Below, piece by piece: positions 1,530-14,436 of a DNA stretch of 27,484 bases; position 1 is the first letter of the stretch, and every line of letters starts with the position of its first letter. The notes beneath the pieces are model-generated. The model did not search any database and was not told where the DNA came from. It saw nothing but the letters and a program-made list of their open reading frames with translations. Position numbers and translations under genes: made by a program. The DNA comes from an uncultured Alphaproteobacteria bacterium (GTDB lineage Bacteria > Pseudomonadota > Alphaproteobacteria > 16-39-46), in assembly GCA_964442815.1 (NCBI GenBank), contig CAYUAL010000001.1, positions 1-27,484 of the forward strand, read 5' to 3'.

Positions 1530-3320
1530 ATGGCTTTACCCGTTCTCACCATTCATAATGGCGTGCTTCATTATGGCACGCGATCTATCTTCCAAGGTAT
1601 TGATATCAATATCTTGGAAGACGAGCATGTGTGCCTTATTGGCCGTAATGGGCAAGGAAAATCGACTTTATTAAAAGTCCTGGGCGGTATGGTAGAACTG
1701 GATAGCGGCACCTTGTACAAAAAACCACATACAAAAATTCATTACCTTCCGCAGGATTTATCTTTACCCCACGGAAAATCTGTTCGGGATATTGTTATGG
1801 AATCAGGCGCAGAAGAGTATGAGGCTGATATCTTTTTAGATGCTCTGACCCTCAATCCTTTAAGCCTTGTTGATAATTTATCTGGCGGAGAAAAACGGCG
1901 TGTCTTATTGGCTAAAACTCTTTCTGGTCACCCTGATGTGTTGTTGTTAGATGAGCCCACCAACCATCTAGACATTACAGGCATTCAGTGGCTTGAGGAT
2001 TATATTAAAGCCTTTAAAGGCGCGGTCGTTATGATAAGCCATGATCGACGCTTTTTAACGAACACATCGCGCTCCATCCTTTGGCTAGATCGAGGAGCGG
2101 CTCGCCGTAGCAATAGAGGCTATGCTTATTTTGAAGAATGGATGGAAGATATTGAGCAAAGTGATGCTAAGGCCTTAGACAAACTCGAATCTAAATTAAG
2201 AATAGAAGAACACTGGAAACAACGCGGCGTAACGGCTCGACGCAAGCGTAATCAAGGACGATTGGAAAAATTGTACCAAATGCGTGCAAGGCGTAGTCAG
2301 TTACTTTCCAATCAAACCAAAGCTGTCCAATTATCTGCCACAACAAATACATACGGTAACCAACTCGTGTCAGAATTGGTTAATGTTCAAAAGAACTATG
2401 AGGGGCGCCTGCACTTAGGGCCCTTTTCTGCGCGCATTTTTAAAGGAGATCGCATTGGCATCATTGGTCCAAATGGTAGCGGAAAGTCGACTCTCCTCAA
2501 ATTAATTATTGGGCAGCTCAAACCAGATTCTGGGCGTGTGCGCGTTGGCAAAACGATTGATGTTGCCTGGTTTGAGCAAGAACGCAATTCCATGGATGAA
2601 AATGAAACACCCTGGCAATATCTCTGCCCTAGCGGAGGAGATTCCATCCTGGTACAAGATACGCCCATGCATGTTGTTGGCTATTTAAAAAAATTCCTCT
2701 TTGATGACAAACAAGCCCGCGGACCAATTAGTACTTTATCAGGAGGTGAAAAAAATAGATTGCAGCTTGCTAAGGTTTTAGCACAGCCCTCCAATATCCT
2801 TGTATTGGATGAGCCCACCAATGATCTGGACATGGACACGCTCGATTTACTGACAGATATGCTTGCCGATTATAAAGGAACTTTAATTCTTATTAGTCAT
2901 GATCGGGATTTCGTTGATCAGTTGGTCACAGCTGTTTTCGCCATCCAGCCTGATGGTAAAGTAATTGAGTGCATCGGTGGGTATACAGACTATGAACAAA
3001 CTTCTTCTAAAACAAGCGTGCAACCTAAGCCCCTAAAGCAAGAGGAAAGGAAAGAGAGCCCTCTTAAACAGACTATTCAAAAACCTAAAAAACTAACCTA
3101 TGCGGACCAACGAGATTTAGAAGTCATTCCTCAGAAACTTGAGGATATAGACAAGCGGTTGAAAGAGATTGAATTTTTGTTAAGTGATTCTGACCTATAT
3201 ACTAAGAATCCTACGAGATTTGAAGAGCTCATAAAAGAAATGGCCGACTTAAAAGCGGCTCAATTGGCTTTGGAACATCGCTGGTTAGAAATCTCTCTAC
3301 GCCAAGAAAGTATGATGTGA
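1530..3320 (+). CDS. uup: ABC-F family ATP-binding protein (Uup-like)
   Basis: Two ABC domains (GRNGQGKST and GPNGSGKST Walker A, two LSGGEK signatures, LLLDEPTNHLD and LVLDEPTNDLD), linker WxxRGVTARRKRNQGRL, C-terminal KKLTY..coiled-coil tail, no TM segments. Confidence 0.9.
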   Translation: MALPVLTIHNGVLHYGTRSIFQGIDINILEDEHVCLIGRNGQGKSTLLKVLGGMVELDSGTLYKKPHTKIHYLPQDLSLPHGKSVRDIVMESGAEEYEADIFLDALTLNPLSLVDNLSGGEKRRVLLAKTLSGHPDVLLLDEPTNHLDITGIQWLEDYIKAFKGAVVMISHDRRFLTNTSRSILWLDRGAARRSNRGYAYFEEWMEDIEQSDAKALDKLESKLRIEEHWKQRGVTARRKRNQGRLEKLYQMRARRSQLLSNQTKAVQLSATTNTYGNQLVSELVNVQKNYEGRLHLGPFSARIFKGDRIGIIGPNGSGKSTLLKLIIGQLKPDSGRVRVGKTIDVAWFEQERNSMDENETPWQYLCPSGGDSILVQDTPMHVVGYLKKFLFDDKQARGPISTLSGGEKNRLQLAKVLAQPSNILVLDEPTNDLDMDTLDLLTDMLADYKGTLILISHDRDFVDQLVTAVFAIQPDGKVIECIGGYTDYEQTSSKTSVQPKPLKQEERKESPLKQTIQKPKKLTYADQRDLEVIPQKLEDIDKRLKEIEFLLSDSDLYTKNPTRFEELIKEMADLKAAQLALEHRWLEISLRQESMM

Positions 3321-3337
3321 GATGAAATTATCCTACA

Positions 3338-3360
3338 ACCTCTCCTCTTGTGGGAGAAGT
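3338..3360. terminator. Short hairpin between convergent uup and MBL hydrolase; possible bidirectional terminator or degenerate REP-like repeat
   Basis: acctctcct-cttgt-gggagaagt: arms match at 7 of 9 positions as an inverted repeat, in a 62-nt gap between convergent stops. Confidence 0.35.
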
Positions 3361-3382
3361 CGATTATTTTTTAAGGAAAGAC

Positions 3383-4150
3383 TCAAAACTCAATCACCAT
3401 GCCATCATAAGCAGGCTCTACGCCTTCCGGTAGTTGGCTTTTTAGCGTATCATAATCCATATCATGATTCATGTGAGTCAAAATAGCGCGCTTGGGTTTT
3501 ACACGCTCAATCCAACTTAGGGTAAGATCCAAGTGCGCATGGGTTAAAGCAGGCTCATACCGTAAGCAATCAACAACCCATACATCTAAATCCTTAAGAG
3601 CTTCAAAAGCAGTTTCCTTAAAAGCTACAACATCTGTGGAATAAGCAAAGTTCCCTATTCTATACCCTGTTGTTTTATTAGGTCCTCCATGTTCTTGCTC
3701 AAAAGGAATAATCTCTACGTTCTTTATACTAAAAGGCTTTTGCATGACGTAAGGCGTTAAAAAAGGCTTATGGTGCTCCACACTCCCAAACTCATCAAAA
3801 AAGATATAAGAAAACCGTTTTAAAAGTTCTTGGATTGTTGCGAGGGATCCATAGATAGGAATTGGCTTGTGCATAAGCACGCTCAAAAATTTGAGATCAT
3901 TAATACCGTGTGCATGATCTGCGTGCGCATGGGTATATAAAACAGCGTCTACCTTCTTAAGATTGTTTGCCAAAAGCTGCTCTCGCACGTCAGGAGAACT
4001 ATCAATCAAAAATGCCGCGTCTTGAGTCTCTACCAAAGCAGATGCTCTGTATCTTTTATTTTTTGAGTTGTTAGGATCGCACTCTCCCCAGCCGTAACAA
4101 AGACTTGGGACTCCATGCGTTGGACCGCACCCTAAGATAGTGACTTTCAT
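3383..4150 (-). CDS. MBL-fold metallo-hydrolase (PhnP-like)
   Basis: LGCG...GVP N-terminus, THAHADHAHG metal motif, AYSTD and LTHM motifs. 4-bp overlap with tatD, the usual alphaproteobacterial pairing. Confidence 0.9.
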   Translation of the reverse strand: MKVTILGCGPTHGVPSLCYGWGECDPNNSKNKRYRASALVETQDAAFLIDSSPDVREQLLANNLKKVDAVLYTHAHADHAHGINDLKFLSVLMHKPIPIYGSLATIQELLKRFSYIFFDEFGSVEHHKPFLTPYVMQKPFSIKNVEIIPFEQEHGGPNKTTGYRIGNFAYSTDVVAFKETAFEALKDLDVWVVDCLRYEPALTHAHLDLTLSWIERVKPKRAILTHMNHDMDYDTLKSQLPEGVEPAYDGMVIEF

Positions 4151-4944
4151 CGAGACACCTTCCAGAAAAGACGATAAAAGTTTTCAGTTGTCGCTTGTTT
4201 GAGTTCTTCCAAAGAAAGATTCTTTATTTCTGCAACGCAATACGCCGTATTGACCACATAGGCTGGCTCATTCGGTTTTCCACGATGAGGAACAGGTGCC
4301 AAAAAGGGGGCATCTGTTTCTACAAGCAACCGATCCAAAGGAACCTTTTTAACAATTTCGCGCAAAGTTTCTGCTTTTTTAAAAGTAACGATTCCAGAGA
4401 TGGAAATGTAAAACCCCATGGCCATAGTTTCTTCAGCTAGGTACTCCGTTCCACTAAAACAATGAATAACGCCTGGGGCTTTTCCGTTAAGAGACCCCAC
4501 TTTCTCCTCCTTAAAAATCTGTAAAAGATCTTCCTCTCCTTCTCGCGAATGGATTACCAGAGGAAGCTCTGTTTCCTGATGCACATGGATATGAGCCCGT
4601 AAACACTGCTTTTGGATTTCTTTGGGGCTATGTTCATAATAATAATCTAAACCTGTTTCCCCAAGCCCTACGACTTTCGGATAAAGTGTTCCTTGTTTAA
4701 GCTCTTCTTCGGTTAAGGAAGGATGCTTCTCTGCTTCATGAGGATGTACCCCAATGGTACAAAAAACGTCAGGATACGTTTGCGTAATTTTAAGAACTTC
4801 AGGAAATTCCTTCATTTCCGTAGAAATAGTAAGAAACTTCCCTACACCTACTTCACGCGCTCTTTGTAGAACACCGGGTAAATCTGCCTTCAACTCTGGA
4901 TAATTGAGGTGACAGTGACTGTCGATGAGATAAGTGTGAGACAT
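4147..4944 (-). CDS. tatD: TatD-family deoxyribonuclease
   Basis: DSHCH, GVHPH, GETGLDY, HSR, HCFSG and ETDAP motifs. Confidence 0.95.
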   Translation of the reverse strand: MSHTYLIDSHCHLNYPELKADLPGVLQRAREVGVGKFLTISTEMKEFPEVLKITQTYPDVFCTIGVHPHEAEKHPSLTEEELKQGTLYPKVVGLGETGLDYYYEHSPKEIQKQCLRAHIHVHQETELPLVIHSREGEEDLLQIFKEEKVGSLNGKAPGVIHCFSGTEYLAEETMAMGFYISISGIVTFKKAETLREIVKKVPLDRLLVETDAPFLAPVPHRGKPNEPAYVVNTAYCVAEIKNLSLEELKQATTENFYRLFWKVSR

Positions 4945-5296: not shown

Positions 5297-5358
5297 AACA
5301 ATCTTTTTTAAGCAACGCAGTGTGCAGGGTTTAAGCTGAAAGCTAATGGAAAAAGAAC

Positions 5359-5518
5359 CGTCATCGCGAACCTAAGAAGCGTAAGCGTAATTAGGTGTGG
5401 CGATCCAGTAAAATACTAAAAGCTCGTTAGAGCTTTTCTACTTAAATAAATAAAGAGCTGCTACGCAGCACTTTTATGTTCTGGATTGCCGCAGGCCTTT
5501 CAGGCCCTCGCAATGACG
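5359..5518. repeat. ~160-bp nested palindromic element (MITE/REP- or Rickettsia-palindromic-element-like)
   Basis: Terminal IR cgtcatcgcga (5359-5369) / tcgcaatgacg (5508-5518), 10/11. Inner IR gtggcgatccag (5397-5408) / ctggattgccgc (5481-5492), 10/12. Internal hairpins aaaagctc-gtta-gagctttt (5418-5437), gctgc-tac-gcagc (5457-5469), ggcct-ttc-aggcc (5494-5506). Confidence 0.8.
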
Positions 5519-5579
5519 TCTTTCTCTTTTTCCACTATATTGGTGTAAAAATCTGAACTCTACGCTAAGCAATAACTTC

Positions 5580-8236: not shown

Positions 8237-10309
8237 TTAGTAGGAAGCCAAAGCAGCTAACAAAAGCAACGCTACGATATTAATAATTTTAATCATAGGA
8301 TTAACAGCGGGACCTGCTGTATCCTTATAAGGATCCCCAACAGTATCTCCTGTTACTGCAGCCTTATGCGCTTCAGAGCCTTTACCCCCGAAATGGCCAT
8401 CCTCAATGTACTTCTTTGCGTTATCCCATGCGCCGCCGCCAGATGTCATGGAAATAGCTACAAACAATCCTGTAACGATGGTTCCCATAAGCATAGCGCC
8501 TAAAGCGGTAAAAGCTGAAGAAGCTCCTGCAATATATCGAACTACAAAGTATAGAACGATGGGAGATAATACAGGAAGAAGAGACGGCACTATCATTTCT
8601 TTAATAGCGGCTTTTGTTAATAAGTCCACAGCACGACCATATTCTGGCTTCGCTTTTCCTTCCATGATCCCTTTTATTTCTTTGAATTGACGACGTACCT
8701 CAACAACAACAGCACCTCCAGCACGACCCACTGCTTTCATTCCCATGGCTCCAAAGAGGTAAGGAAGCATTCCTCCAATGAAAAGTCCTACCATCACGAA
8801 AGGATCTTGAAGGGAGAAGCTCACATTCAAATCTGGAAAGAAATGCTTCAGATCTTCAATATATGCAGCAAATAAAACAAGCGCCGCAAGACCCGCAGAT
8901 CCAATAGCGTATCCTTTTGTCACAGCTTTTGTAGTATTTCCAACGGCATCCAAAGCATCTGTCACTTTACGTACTTCTTTAGGCAAATTAGACATTTCCG
9001 CTATACCACCAGCATTATCTGTAACAGGACCATACGCATCTAATGCCACAATGATTCCTGCTAAAGCCAACATAGTTGTAGCAGCAACAGCAATACCATA
9101 AAGCCCTGCAATCATAAATGTTATGATAATACCCGCACAAATAACCAGAACAGGAAGCGCTGTTGATTCCATAGAAACAGCAAGCCCTTGAATAATGTTC
9201 GTTGCATGTCCCGTTGTAGAAGACTCTGCGACGCTTTTTACAGGTCTATATGCTGTGGACGTGTAGTATTCGGTGATCCATACTAAAAGACCTGTAATAA
9301 CTAATCCTGTTAAAGAACAATATATGAGATCTTTTGCCTCAAGGGTATACCCTTCATACATAAGAGTTTGACCTTCAAATAACCAGTGAGTAATACCAAT
9401 GATAAAGATAGCAGAGAGTAATGTTGCAGCTATCAAACCTTTATATAGGGCTCCCATAATATTGGCATCTTTTCCTAACTTGACAAAAACGGTACCTATT
9501 AAAGAACCAATAATACAAACTCCTCCAATCATAAGAGGATAGCTCATCATTAACCCTTGCATATCGCCTGCAAAGGAAATAGCTCCTAAAAGCATCGTTG
9601 CTACCAACGTTACCACGTAAGTTTCAAAAAGATCTGCAGCCATCCCTGCACAATCTCCTACGTTATCCCCCACGTTATCTGCAATAACAGCAGGATTCCG
9701 AGGATCATCTTCAGGAATTCCAGCTTCAATCTTTCCAACTAGGTCAGCCCCGACGTCTGCGCCCTTTGTAAAGATCCCTCCTCCTAGACGCGCAAAAATG
9801 GAAATAAGAGAAGCTCCAAAACTAAGAGCTATTAAAGCTTCTAAAATATCTCTGGTAGATGCTCCCCAATGCTGTAGTAGCATATAATAAACTGTAACAC
9901 CTAAGAGCCCCAAGCCTACCACAAGCATACCTGTTACAGCACCAGATCTAAAGGCTATAGAGAGGGCACCTTGCAATCCATTTCTAGAAGCTTCTGCTGT
10001 ACGCACATTAGCACGCACAGAAATATTCATTCCTATGTATCCTGCGATACCTGATAAAAAAGCACCTATGAAATATCCTAAAGCAACTTCAAGACCCATC
10101 AAGAAACCTAAAATTGCTCCTATGACGATACCTACACCAGCAATGGTGGTATATTGACGGTTTAGATATGCTTTTGCACCTTCTTGAATAGCGGAAGCAA
10201 TCTCACGCATCCTTTCTGTGCCTGTTGCTGCTCTTAAAATAGATCGGGTTGTAATTAGCCCATATAAAAGAGCTAGAATTGCGCAACCAATAATAAGGGG
10301 ATATAGCAT
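8237..10309 (-). CDS. hppA: Membrane-bound H+-translocating pyrophosphatase, K+-independent type
   Basis: [70 protein letters not shown] and many TM helices. GNTTKA (Lys rather than Ala) marks the K+-independent subfamily. Confidence 0.96.
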
Positions 10310-10472: not shown

Positions 10473-10850
10473 ATGAACAAACTAATCTCTTTCTTAATAT
10501 GTTTTTTGAGCAGTATTATGATAGGCAACATATCTGCCTATGCGTCTTTGGACCCATTGCTCTCTCTTAACGATAACACTGGCTTAGAAGTTCTTACGAA
10601 AGAAGGCGCACAGCAAGTTAAATCAGGATCTCTTATTGATAATATTGTTGATGAAATATATAAATGGGGAAATGGGAGCAGAGAAAATATTGAGCGAACA
10701 AAAACTGCTCAAAATAAAACTACCATGGAACCAGGCTGGGATACAGTACGTTCTGGACAGATGCAACCGGACGAATTTAAACGCCTTATACGAAAAAAAC
10801 TAGAAGAGAAACTTTCTAATCTTCCTATACCTCAGGCAAACTCAAAGTAA
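10473..10850 (+). CDS. Small exported hypothetical protein
   Basis: 125 aa. AAGGA RBS upstream; MNK-hydrophobic-AYA signal peptide; no recognisable domain. Confidence 0.75.
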   Translation: MNKLISFLICFLSSIMIGNISAYASLDPLLSLNDNTGLEVLTKEGAQQVKSGSLIDNIVDEIYKWGNGSRENIERTKTAQNKTTMEPGWDTVRSGQMQPDEFKRLIRKKLEEKLSNLPIPQANSK

Positions 10851-10876
10851 TATAGGCTTCTCATGCTGGTCTTATA

Positions 10877-11224
10877 TTAAACAAGGTTATTCCCTTGTTT
10901 CTTTTGAAATGCCTCAAGAAGCTCCTGAACTGTGCTGATTTCTTTAAGCCCAAGACCTATACCCTGTTGGATCAGGAGGTCTTTTTTTCCTTTGGGAATA
11001 AAGGCCATTTTGAAACCTAGTTTCTGAGCTTCTTTGAGGCGGATTTCTTCTCCATAAACCATACGAATATCACCGGAGAGTCCAACTTCTCCTAAGAATA
11101 CCGTATCTAAAGGAAGGGGCTTATTATGGCATGCTGATAGGATAGCTACGACCACCGCTAAATCAGCAGCAGGCTCCGTAACCTTTAAGCCCCCTGCCAC
11201 ACTCACATATACACCTTTATTAGA
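10877..11224 (-). pseudogene. radA: Second, diverged copy of the radA 3' end (open frame; could be translated as 109 aa from GTG 11206)
   Basis: Reads SNKGVYVSVAGGLKVTEPAADLAV...GEVGLSGDIR...EAQKLGF, nearly identical to RadA at 13054..14436, but lacks the Zn finger, ATPase domain and first part of the Lon-like domain. Confidence 0.85.
10901..11224. repeat. Direct repeat copy A (partner 13060..13386)
   Basis: Hand alignment of 10979-11218 vs 13141-13380 gives 23 differences in 240 nt (about 90% identity), with identical tracts of 56 and 49 nt. Confidence 0.95.
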
Positions 11225-12860
11225 ATTTGTCTAAAAACTTTGTAAAATCTATTGGACGTAAAATATCAAACTCACCTTTTCTTAGGACAGAGTCATACCC
11301 CATATTAGATGGTTGAGGTTTTACTTCTTGGGCATTAGGGTTTCGAAGATAGGCTATAGCGGATCCCTCAAAGTGAAGTCCTAAGTCAAAATTTCCCCTA
11401 ATAAAGTTTATATCAGGCCATTGGGGTTCTTGGTCTCTATAAGCGGGGTCTTGAAGCGCAATAGAGGATTTCATGTGCATTACAAGTTCTTCTACTGGGG
11501 TATGTCTACTATTGGTATTTTCATATCCTCGTGCCCAAGAAAATCCTACTGATTCTCTTATGTTTGATCCTCTTATGTTTGGGTCACGAGTTTGCATATC
11601 TGCAAATACATGAAAATAAGTATCTAATAGACTTCTATTAGGGGTATGTCTTATATGACTTTGGAGGCACTCTAAAATAGGAAGTATAAGTGTACGTCGT
11701 GATTCTTCTAAGGAACCAGCAATACGCTCAAGATCCCATTCTAGTATTTTTTCTCTAGCCCTGGTGCTAAATGGGTAAAGACCTTGTCGCAGGCGTATAG
11801 CTAAGGGTGCTGTTATATACAAGGTGGAATCGTATAGGTATAGCCTTTCATAATCTATAGAGCTAACTTCTAATAAGGTTCCATCAGAGGATAAATGCAT
11901 AACCCCGTTACGCCATTGGTTATCGCCAGAAAGCGTCATAAAAAAAGCTATTAAATCATCTTCTACGGTATCTTGACTAAAACAACTCAAGCCATAATTT
12001 CTTTCATCTTCTGTAATTAAAGGGAGAATAGAAATTCTTTTTTTCTTATTGTTAATACTGTAGCCTTCTAATACACGTGTAAGGTCTTGCAAGCGTTCAA
12101 GGTCTGGTAGGCGTATGGCCTCTTCCAGAAGATGTCCATATTCTTGCTCATCCTCTTCTTTCATATCAACCCACTTTGTGGTGTGTGAGCAAGACCAAAG
12201 AGCCAATGCTGGAAGGGCTCCATGAGGATGAGGCATCTTATTTAAAATGGTAGTAAGAGGCGTTTGTATTGTAGGGTCGTGTGGGTTAAGAATTACTACA
12301 GGTTGAACAATTCCATAAAAATTTCTTACTTCATACCCATCGGACGTTTGGTAAGTTAGAGGTAAGTTCCTAACAACATAACCAGGAGCTAATGTTTTAC
12401 CAAATCCAGCCTCCTTAAGAGAAGCTGATGCTTGCACAAAGCTGTCTGCTATATAAGTATTTCTCTCATACAGTCCATTTGACTCAAGTGCAGCTCGGAA
12501 TCTAAGTGGTGTTTGATTGAAATCACTTGCCTCTTCTTCGCTGAGTTTCCATTTTGGGTCATACCCTTGTTTTAAAACAGCAATGGTCCGGTCTCCCTCT
12601 TGTACTGTAATCATAGGCGTAGTGTCACCGTACATAGAAGCAGCAGCTTGAATGGGATTATGTTGAGAAGCTTGAATTACGCGAGCTAAAAAAGCCTTTT
12701 CTTCTCCAGAATCCCCAGCATAAGCAGATGAACTCCCAGCAGAAGGATCAAAGGCCCAAGCTAAAGAAATAGACATTCCAATAGGAATACCTATGATCAG
12801 TGCAATAATTAATTTCTTTATAAAGTCTGGGAAAATCTGATTAACCATATTTTTTTTCAT
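11220..12860 (-). CDS. Exported hypothetical protein with putative atypical (PI3/PI4-kinase-like) kinase domain
   Basis: 546 aa. Signal peptide ending SLAWA-F. Ordered motifs IAVLK97, YE132RNTYIAD, YGIVQ186, D313NQWRN318 and SID336YE match the spacing of PI4K type II/HipA-like kinases (VFK, E..AY.LD, GS.Q, DRH..N, IDHG). Kinase call is from motif reading only. Confidence 0.55.
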   Translation of the reverse strand: MKKNMVNQIFPDFIKKLIIALIIGIPIGMSISLAWAFDPSAGSSSAYAGDSGEEKAFLARVIQASQHNPIQAAASMYGDTTPMITVQEGDRTIAVLKQGYDPKWKLSEEEASDFNQTPLRFRAALESNGLYERNTYIADSFVQASASLKEAGFGKTLAPGYVVRNLPLTYQTSDGYEVRNFYGIVQPVVILNPHDPTIQTPLTTILNKMPHPHGALPALALWSCSHTTKWVDMKEEDEQEYGHLLEEAIRLPDLERLQDLTRVLEGYSINNKKKRISILPLITEDERNYGLSCFSQDTVEDDLIAFFMTLSGDNQWRNGVMHLSSDGTLLEVSSIDYERLYLYDSTLYITAPLAIRLRQGLYPFSTRAREKILEWDLERIAGSLEESRRTLILPILECLQSHIRHTPNRSLLDTYFHVFADMQTRDPNIRGSNIRESVGFSWARGYENTNSRHTPVEELVMHMKSSIALQDPAYRDQEPQWPDINFIRGNFDLGLHFEGSAIAYLRNPNAQEVKPQPSNMGYDSVLRKGEFDILRPIDFTKFLDKF

Positions 12861-13053
12861 AAATGATGCCTCAAAATTAATAATGCATAATTTTCTTACT
12901 CTTGTTATATAAGAATGCTTTTTAAGAATATCAAGAGCTGGCTTTAAAAAAATTTAAACAGATATGAGACTAAGAAAGAGTGAGAGAACCCAAAAAGGGG
13001 TTAGTTCTACAACTATCTCTCGAAATGTTTGAGTATAAATAGAGAAAAAAATC

Positions 13054-14436
13054 TTAGTGCTTTTGAAATAATCCAAGAAGCTGCTCTTGAACCGTACTTA
13101 ACTCTCTAAGCTCTAACCCAACGCTCTGTTGAATCAGAAGGTCTTTTTTTCCTTTGGGAATAAAGGCTGTTTTGAAACCTAGTTTCTGAGCTTCTTTGAG
13201 GCGGATTTCTTCTCCATAGACCATACGGATGTCACCAGAGAGTCCAACTTCTCCTAAGAATACCGTATCTAAAGGAAGGGGCTTATTATGGCAGGCTGAT
13301 AGAATAGCAGCTACAACGGCTAGATCTGCTGCAGGCTCCGTAACCTTTAAGCCCCCAGCAACGCTGACATAGACATCCTTATTGGAAAAAGTGTAGCCAC
13401 ATCGTGCCTCTAAAACAGCCAAAAGCATGGCCAAACGCCCATAGTCCCAACCTACTGTCGTCCGCCGGGGCGTCCCATATGGAATGGAAGTTACCAGAGC
13501 TTGAATTTCCATTAAAAGAGGTCGTGTACCCTCCAAACTTGCAAAAATACTAATCCCACTAACAGGTGCCCGATCATGCGCTGGGAGAAAAAGCCCTGAG
13601 GGGTTTGTTACTTCTTGCAAGCCACGCTCTGTCATTTCAAAAACGCCAATTTCATTAGCTGGGCCAAAACGATTCTTTACAGAGCGCAAAATACGATAGG
13701 GATGTCCGCGTTCCCCCTCAAAATACAAAACCGCATCTACCATATGCTCCAAAACCTTAGGACCGGCAATAGCTCCTTCTTTGGTTACATGTCCTATGAG
13801 AAAAACTGTAATTTCCTTTTGCTTGGCAGCTTGAATAATCTCATGTACAGACGTGCGCACCTGCGTCACTGTACCTGGTGCCGCCTCAATTCCTTCTACA
13901 TACAATGTTTGTACTGAGTCAATAACAAGATAAGAAGGAACTTTATCTCCTTCCAAAAGTGTTAATATCTCTTGTACTTGGGTAGCCGTTGCTAACGCTA
14001 AAGGACCTTCTTTAACCCCCAATCTTTCCGCACGCAAACGGATCTGGGCTCGGCCTTCTTCGCCGGATACATACACACAGTCTGCCAATCGAGATAAACG
14101 ATCTGCAATTTGCAGCATAATCGTGGATTTTCCAATGCCAGGATCCCCTCCTATGAGGATAATAGATCCGGCTACCAGCCCTCCCCCTACAACTTGGTCA
14201 AATTCTTTACACCCTGTTAGTGTACGAATGGGACTTTCTTCCTTAGCGGCTAAAGGGACGACTTCAAGAGTTTTATGAGCGTACCCCTTCCCTTTCTTCT
14301 GGAAAGAGAATCTATCCTTTGTGGTTACTTCTTCTTCTAAGCTATTCCAAGCTCCACAACCAGTGCACTTCCCCGTCCATTTAGGGTGAACAGTACCACA
14401 CGCTTGGCACACATACTGATGAATAACTTTGCTCAT
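13054..14436 (-). CDS. radA: DNA repair protein RadA/Sms
   Basis: CQAC..CTGC Zn finger, GGDPGIGKST Walker A, VIDSVQT, KNRFG motif, Lon-like C-terminal domain. Confidence 0.98.
   Translation of the reverse strand: MSKVIHQYVCQACGTVHPKWTGKCTGCGAWNSLEEEVTTKDRFSFQKKGKGYAHKTLEVVPLAAKEESPIRTLTGCKEFDQVVGGGLVAGSIILIGGDPGIGKSTIMLQIADRLSRLADCVYVSGEEGRAQIRLRAERLGVKEGPLALATATQVQEILTLLEGDKVPSYLVIDSVQTLYVEGIEAAPGTVTQVRTSVHEIIQAAKQKEITVFLIGHVTKEGAIAGPKVLEHMVDAVLYFEGERGHPYRILRSVKNRFGPANEIGVFEMTERGLQEVTNPSGLFLPAHDRAPVSGISIFASLEGTRPLLMEIQALVTSIPYGTPRRTTVGWDYGRLAMLLAVLEARCGYTFSNKDVYVSVAGGLKVTEPAADLAVVAAILSACHNKPLPLDTVFLGEVGLSGDIRMVYGEEIRLKEAQKLGFKTAFIPKGKKDLLIQQSVGLELRELSTVQEQLLGLFQKH
13060..13386. repeat. Direct repeat copy B (3' end of intact radA)
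   Basis: Aligns to 10901..11224 with one 3-nt indel near the stop. Confidence 0.95.

Follow-up and report, generated by a model that had tools for sequence, protein, structure and literature searches.

An orphan gene bracketed by diverged copies of the radA 3′ end is present in one, and absent from another, of two near-identical strains of an uncultured alphaproteobacterium

The DNA analysed here, which we refer to as the window, is a stretch of 27,484 nucleotides (nt) that makes up the entire contig C1 (CAYUAL010000001.1) of a metagenome-assembled genome (MAG) of an uncultured alphaproteobacterium (G000; 1.54 Mb in 216 contigs, 96% complete, 2.7% contamination). Wastewater and sludge metagenomes hold sequence near-identical to the window, and the host has no close species representative, the top RadA identity among its GTDB relatives being 62%. 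Our subject is the gene radA together with the DNA directly downstream of it; coordinates are window positions throughout, and radA, the two copies of its tail and the gene between them all lie on the (−) strand. radA itself (13054-14436) is complete and looks functional, encoding a protein of 460 amino acids (aa) with a Zn ribbon, a KaiC/AAA_25 ATPase domain and a ChlI/Lon_C domain. Between the radA stop codon and the next start codon is a 193-nt spacer (12861-13053), which neither recurs elsewhere in the genome nor has a match in Rfam, and beyond it lie a gene of 546 aa that we call the cargo gene (11220-12860) and a second copy of the last part of radA. We refer to the copy that forms the end of radA as the attached tail and to the copy beyond the cargo gene as the displaced tail, and we split each at the crossover described below, giving A5′ (13169-13387) and A3′ (13054-13168) for the attached tail, and B5′ (11007-11225) and B3′ (10877-11006) for the displaced tail.

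A repeat search recovered the two tails as a 300-nt direct repeat with 86% identity (10916-11215 versus 13078-13377), and blastn aligned 13060-13387 with 10901-11225 in direct orientation with 284 identities in 330 positions, which bears out an earlier note on this DNA that had described the 3′ end of radA as doubled in direct orientation around one gene. The two copies are offset in register by 2162 and are the only radA tail copies in the 1.54-Mb genome. Two further claims of that note also held, namely that the homology of the second tail begins inside the stop codon of the cargo gene (TTC-TAA, which is TCT-AAT in the radA frame), so that this codon lies within radA-derived sequence, and that the tails have different C-terminal ends. 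In particular, A3′ encodes the present C terminus of RadA (..QEQLLGLFQKH), and B3′ encodes ..QELLEAFQKKQGNNLV. Identical tracts of 56 nt (13238-13293), 49 nt (13170-13218), 29 nt (13139-13167) and 26 nt are shared by the copies. The displaced tail forms an intact reading frame of 109 aa (10877-11206) with a GTG start and Pfam matches to ChlI/Lon_C. It has been entered in the NCBI record as a separate 109-aa protein (P0127), which is most likely a non-functional fragment.

Two proteins from the 90% protein cluster of the window RadA provided loci for comparison: L044, an ENA contig from a separate assembly that encodes a RadA of 465 aa (P0126), and L045, the locus of a sister species that encodes a RadA of 459 aa (P0128). 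Across its first ~1 kb, a stretch that takes in mlaF and the beginning of radA, L044 agrees with the window at every position, but it has a single, uninterrupted radA tail, and its RadA differs from that of the window in its C terminus as well as in its length. Upstream of 13169, L044 carries the base of the attached copy at every site that distinguishes the two window copies, A5′ being identical to it in both the 93-nt 5′ block and the 123-nt central block. Downstream of 13168 it carries the bases of the displaced copy, including the stop codon and the next 10 nt (TATAAGACCA, equal to window 10876-10867); B3′ has no differences from L044 in the 51 positions corresponding to 13117-13167 and one difference further 3′, and A3′ does not occur in L044. 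The switch between the two types (13169|13168) falls within one codon, which reads ACA (attached copy), ATG (displaced copy) and, in L044, ACG, the reciprocal combination. Because ACG is found in neither window copy, L044 is not the product of an assembler switching between k-mer paths. The crossover region (13139-13218, mirrored at 10977-11056) consists of the 49-nt and 29-nt identical tracts around this one codon.

Since L044 is of attached type on the 5′ side of the switch and of displaced type on the 3′ side, the two tails of the window are reciprocal hybrids with respect to the uninterrupted allele, with one switch inside the homology. What the window has and L044 lacks is a unit of 2,162 nt (11007-13168), made up of A3′, the spacer, the cargo gene and B5′. 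Both allelic states exist in near-identical strains, and the sequence comparison argues that the unit has been gained or lost through recombination within the repeat, altering the C terminus of RadA. The earlier note had offered a relic island that has lost its integrase and a recombination cassette as alternatives, had predicted that a crossover in the identical tracts would delete the cargo and swap the RadA C terminus, and had proposed looking among relatives for an empty-site allele; L044 has exactly such a structure, in support of the recombination reading. A Logan contig from run X2 also has the radA body running into displaced-type sequence, with both 13168 and 13169 of displaced type and two more differences unplaced; its switch would sit inside the 49-nt tract and would be either a second independent junction or a switch in the k=31 graph. 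In the attempt to extend the flank of L044, an ENA contig with holB proved to stop inside hppA, and records for p125 and NuoE were not found.

The pattern of divergence between the tails indicates where they came from. Over 13147-13386 we count 24 differences, one more than the 23 given previously for these 240 nt, and the three amino-acid changes then listed (D/G, A/V and T/M) stand. By the Nei-Gojobori method, applied to 270 ungapped nt, the tails differ with dS 0.55 and dN 0.027, a ratio of 0.05; the second tail contains no stop codon or frameshift, and the 5.5 non-synonymous changes seen compare with ~49 predicted under free drift (ratio 0.5). It follows from this ratio and from the deficit of non-synonymous changes that both tails diverged within working radA genes and were joined recently, in agreement with the proposal that both evolved as coding sequence. 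The differences are unevenly spread, with 18 in the 93 positions of the 5′ block against 4 in the 123 positions of the centre (Fisher p=1.5e-4), and the 3′ end of the repeat is again strongly diverged, with an indel. The crossover lies 218 nt inside the repeat, and the 5′ edge, the usual place of an integrase core, is its most diverged part, with no identical run of at least 15 nt in the adjoining 30 nt; the earlier remark that divergence peaks at the 5′ junction, which is atypical for an att core, was accurate.

In the 5′ block, A5′ is identical to L044 (0/93) and differs from the sister species at 10 of 93 positions. B5′ has 18-19 differences there both from the resident tail and from the sister species, nearly all of them synonymous, with dS of 1.33 against the resident tail and 1.65 against the sister species, and dN/dS of 0.02. 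The distance of B5′ from the sister species is thus about double that of A5′ and almost entirely synonymous, so that B5′ derives from another functional radA; on these distances it is foreign, from a donor radA more distant than that of the sister species. Each copy differs from the sister species at 21 of the 123 central positions, which points to homogenisation of the centre of the repeat, B5′ with the resident tail, through exchange between the copies, as expected where crossovers occur. When amino-acid states were polarised with outgroups, the A5′+B3′ composite (the L044 state) was ancestral at five of six polarisable sites, and the derived states fell in the B5′+A3′ composite, among them an additional Gln and a Gly where Asp is nearly invariant. 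The uninterrupted allele is thereby modestly favoured as the original state, although L044 could equally be a revertant.

We consider it somewhat probable that the locus represents an insertion/deletion polymorphism generated by Campbell-type single crossover through host homologous recombination, and by its reversal. The mobile unit would consist of one orphan gene, coding for a seemingly exported or membrane-anchored protein, together with a diverged version of the final ~110 codons of radA that the unit brings with it; as a circle, the segment 11007-13168 would hold one complete, diverged radA tail. A single crossover between this tail copy and the chromosomal radA tail would insert the unit by insertion-duplication, keeping radA intact with a new C terminus and shifting the old end downstream, and the reverse crossover would remove it. 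We infer that the enzyme was the host homologous-recombination machinery rather than a site-specific integrase, that the incoming molecule was a circle from a related bacterium, and that the uninterrupted allele was the original state. The reciprocal hybrids are what such a crossover should leave. Moreover, the switch lies amid long identity (the 49-nt and 29-nt tracts), and the MAG encodes RecA (on contig C30), MutS and MutL. Crossovers confined to identical tracts, as observed, are to be expected because mismatch repair should be active. On the upstream side of the crossover, the unit also has 219 nt homologous to radA, which are of no use for restoring the gene but are just what is required for homologous recombination. 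Annotation of the window by open reading frames (ORFs) and Pfam found no recombinase in or near the unit; across the MAG, PF00589 (tyrosine recombinase) gave two strong matches, which are probably XerC and XerD, and one weak match, and PF00239 (serine recombinase) gave none.

Several further housekeeping genes of G000 seem to have undergone the same process. A scan of G000 for C-terminal gene ends that recur downstream found, besides radA and a tandem segmental duplication on contig C109, six genes with a diverged copy of their 3′ end downstream. At a gene for an MFS transporter (C12), a repeat of 159 nt with 87% identity flanks an insert of 432 nt without a long ORF (dN/dS 0.12); at a GNAT gene next to recA (C30), a repeat of 231 nt with 84% identity flanks 649 nt that encode a 145-aa orphan on the opposite strand (dN/dS 0.20); at nuoF (C62), a repeat of 135 nt with 83% identity flanks 456 nt with a Cys-rich orphan of 108 aa (dN/dS 0.11); and at prfA (C87), a repeat of 95 nt with 94% identity flanks 1,470 nt with an AAA_14/DUF4143 ATPase gene (dN/dS 0.08). 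In these four loci, for which dN/dS was computed, the displaced copy is in frame and the repeat ends 3-39 nt past the stop codon. The prfA insert ATPase (C87 4522-5772; L049:1523-2773, −) matches the PADLOC candidate single-gene defence system PDC-S01 (E=5e-139). At the gene for cytochrome c1 (C52), the repeat is 63 nt long with 81% identity and the insert of 2.76 kb encodes an orphan of 799 aa (1906-4305; L050), whose repeats match the DotG/IcmE model at 149 bits, far under the cut-off of 750. At an M3 peptidase gene (C9 7767-14215; L051), three displaced tails with 75-80% identity follow in series (12188-12325, 10850-10951 and 9262-9363), the 1.85 kb up to the first copy holding a peptide deformylase gene (def) and a gene for a 260-aa orphan; two of the tail copies lie inside a 1.6-kb tandem duplication (97%), so that the locus forms an array of displaced tails. 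The products of the orphan inserts have N termini that by eye resemble signal peptides. Among the compared inserts and repeat boundaries we found no common sequence, boundary motif, element backbone or Rfam family, and orphan duplicates of gene N termini are much rarer, at about 1-2 in the genome.

Some of these loci could be compared with near-identical strains. The ENA assembly that contains L044 reproduces the GNAT locus at 99.98% identity, including the insert and the start of the tail copy (L053). At the M3 peptidase locus, the same assembly has an uninterrupted hybrid allele (L054), of attached type on its 5′ side and displaced type on its 3′ side, from which the deformylase gene and the gene for the 260-aa orphan are missing. 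This makes two polymorphic loci and one shared locus among the three open to such a check. With seven loci in 1.5 Mb, it is possible, and we suggest it tentatively, that accessory genes of this lineage of sludge alphaproteobacteria with small genomes travel between related strains as integrase-free 'tail-anchored cassettes', a systematic route of gain rather than a set of unrelated scars. If so, the diverged 3′ end of a housekeeping gene would be the only recombination handle of each cassette, host homologous recombination would insert and remove cassettes and leave the target gene unharmed, and the cargo would mostly be orphans with signal-peptide-like N termini, plus a candidate defence gene. 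The suggestion that radA is a special target did not survive this survey: the six other genes have the same architecture, and among 354 sampled alphaproteobacterial genomes that have a match to the radA tail, the window genome is the only one with a duplication of that tail in cis. The class-level survey included genome G047, which has a single radA-tail match and on which no claim rests. Double radA-tail matches in G125 and G150 proved to be second full-length genes on other contigs, without duplication in cis.

Several observations weigh against Campbell-type recombination. Neither a circular form nor a donor genome nor a read across a junction was observed; the flank of the uninterrupted allele extends to just 10 nt, the junction in X2 may be a switch in the k=31 graph, and the event may have been either a gain or a loss. 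In addition, the identity around the switch at the M3 peptidase locus is limited to 12 bases, a short tract for RecA, and MutS and MutL disfavour recombination at ~20% divergence outside identical tracts. Finally, an integrase may have acted in trans, as MAGs, of which this one is 96% complete, often miss genes of mobile elements. The explanation that we rank second is accordingly a relic or satellite of a site-specific integrative element, either of the e14/icd type or an att remnant like a cis-mobilizable element (CIME), with its integrase deleted or provided in trans. The layout is the classical one of a duplicated target 3′ end, with the target kept intact by the tail that the element brings and the displaced tail at the far end; the synonymous bias of the divergence fits selection on the element's copy, and a precise presence/absence allele exists. 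We nevertheless judge this explanation unlikely. An element of the e14/icd type would be expected to have its own recombinase and a crossover at a short identical core at the upstream edge, and neither was found: only Xer-like recombinases turned up in the MAG, and the crossover is far inside the repeat, with no identical core at the 5′ edge. Nor does an integrase need the 219 nt of homology upstream of the crossover, the loci compared have no att motif or backbone in common, and the second apparent junction, in X2, is at a different position.

The remaining explanations are considerably less probable than either. An origin in place, by tandem duplication of the tail followed by insertion, or by one-sided homology-facilitated illegitimate recombination of a linear fragment with duplication of the target, after which the copies diverged locally, has a parallel in C109, where a true tandem segmental duplication copied a gene tail (95% identity), and synteny is broken after radA in this lineage, with cvpA on C96. 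An untranslated copy should gain non-synonymous changes and stop codons, however, and what is seen instead is a dN/dS of 0.05 and an unbroken frame; moreover, B5′ is farther from the resident tail than the sister-species radA is, and so is no local copy. This origin, which we regard as improbable, is largely refuted by a B5′ that is foreign and shaped by selection. Slightly less probable again is an assembly artefact in which the radA ends of two strains were chained in one contig. The MAG, with its 216 contigs, comes from mixed populations in which a single-tail allele exists, and a check of reads from four runs, through fragmentary Logan contigs at ~4x, gave no joints, none of the contigs listed bridging the junctions. 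Yet the junction between the cargo and the displaced tail joins non-homologous sequence, where graph assemblers do not mis-join; pieces of the window, including ones specific to the displaced tail and to the cargo, are found again, at 100% identity, in four runs that belong to three studies; the GNAT locus with its insert recurs in an independent assembly; and the genome has seven such loci, all in frame. An assembly error is thus unlikely, linkage across the junctions being probable. Least probable of all, in our estimate, is a programmed switch, in which the repeat alternates two RadA C termini or the 109-aa tail fragment is expressed as a regulator. Both C termini do occur in near-identical strains, and the displaced tail is an intact frame with its own GTG start and database record. 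Against this, the extreme C terminus of RadA differs from relative to relative both in length and in sequence, and the recurrence of the arrangement at unrelated genes points to a general by-product. A swappable C terminus, as proposed previously, therefore need not serve any function; the swap looks like a by-product.

In all the relatives seen, including a contig with a RadA 77% identical, the gene order is mlaE-mlaF-radA-cvpA-SDR. In G000, cvpA and the SDR gene are found on C96 (2370-3900), behind a region of ~900 nt without a long ORF, and the sister species has other orphan genes behind its radA, with N termini resembling signal peptides, and no duplicated tail. On this comparison, the 3′ flank of radA is variable in the genus. 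Synteny on the hppA side is too variable among relatives to be informative, and a search of the literature on radA as an attachment site found nothing relevant. On the far side of the displaced tail in the window lies a convergent orphan gene (10473-10850, +; 125 aa, with an N terminus that by eye resembles a signal peptide), which belongs to the resident flank because the first 10 nt past the tail match L044. Within the radA body, the two otherwise identical strains differ at ~46 sites clustered in 540 nt (L044 nt ~1140-1680, window ~14316-13777, radA nt 121-660), which have the look of a tract imported from a diverged relative by homologous recombination, apart from the event at the tail. 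Dispersed repeats of 60-230 nt, resembling miniature inverted-repeat transposable elements or repetitive extragenic palindromes, occur in intergenic regions at window 5315-5532, C6 20664-20893, C123 295-452, C13 17429-17535 and on many other contigs.

The cargo protein has a hydrophobic N terminus that by eye resembles a signal peptide or membrane anchor, and no family match in Pfam, NCBIfam, PADLOC, a PDB profile search or ESM Atlas. It belongs to an orphan family with four relatives among 1.84 billion representative proteins. None of the relatives whose contexts were seen (L035 and L057) adjoins radA, and scans of metagenome contigs and genome contigs for relatives gave weak matches or none. 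A single-sequence AlphaFold model was unusable (pLDDT 35). Residues ~311-338 contain a motif, S-G-D-x3-R-N ... I-D-x-E, that is invariant across the five-member family and is by eye like the catalytic and metal-binding motifs of choline-kinase/APH-type kinases, for which sequence searches give no support.

If read in this way, the radA locus would be a case in which a genome without a visible integrase gains and loses accessory genes one by one at the end of a gene of essential type, which stays unbroken, the C terminus of the protein changing as a side effect. That the arrangement recurs at several housekeeping genes of one 1.5-Mb genome suggests that reduced or host-associated bacteria have a route of gene flux that is under-described. 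There is also a practical consequence: annotation turns duplicated tails into stray small proteins, here the 'RadA' fragment of 109 aa, and they can lead gene calling, strain typing and assembly astray.

The closest described layout is that of the cryptic prophage e14 in Escherichia coli, where icdC, a C-terminal pseudogene of icd, lies at the e14 site, which is also used by phage 21 (Hill et al. 1989, PMC210168, as cited in PMC13626634), and where loss of e14 recombines icd and icdC into a working chimera with synonymous changes (PMC13626634). As at radA, a housekeeping gene harbours the element in its 3′ end and receives a substitute end from it, and the old end is found displaced beyond the element; most differences between the copies are synonymous, and loss yields a chimeric working gene. 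Unlike the radA unit, which has 2.16 kb, one gene and no recombinase, e14 is 15 kb long, is SOS-inducible and has its own site-specific recombination system, and at radA the crossover falls midway in 330 nt of homology, the unit being homologous on both sides of it.

Campbell-type insertion-duplication, as performed by non-replicating circles and suicide plasmids, leaves a direct duplication around the insert and hybrid copies, is reversible and needs tracts of identity, and in each of these respects the radA locus is alike. It is known mainly as a laboratory tool, or from homology provided by plasmids and insertion sequences, whereas the radA case is natural, involves a tail with ~14% overall divergence, leaves the target gene intact and is repeated at several genes within one genome. 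CIMEs are integrase-less, att-flanked remnants of streptococcal integrative and conjugative elements (ICEs), whose att sites work with the integrase of a cognate ICE in trans. They resemble the radA unit in having a small cargo between direct repeats that include the target 3′ end, and no integrase of their own; they differ in that the MAG has revealed no candidate integrase or common att motif, although MAGs under-represent mobile elements. Finally, C-terminal displacement and orphan arrays are features of rhs, cdiA and type VI secretion system effector loci, where the new tip is a selected payload that comes with an immunity gene. There too, recombination of incoming DNA within a conserved part of a gene brings in a new 3′ end along with a linked gene and pushes the old end downstream, and the M3 peptidase locus even has three displaced tails in series. 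The targets here are housekeeping genes, however, and the changes at the tips look incidental, rather than being the payload of a polymorphic toxin. A layout of this kind is therefore already known; to this the radA locus adds both allelic states, seen directly and with a mapped crossover, a cassette tail that is foreign and mosaic, and the recurrence of the arrangement at several housekeeping genes of one small genome.

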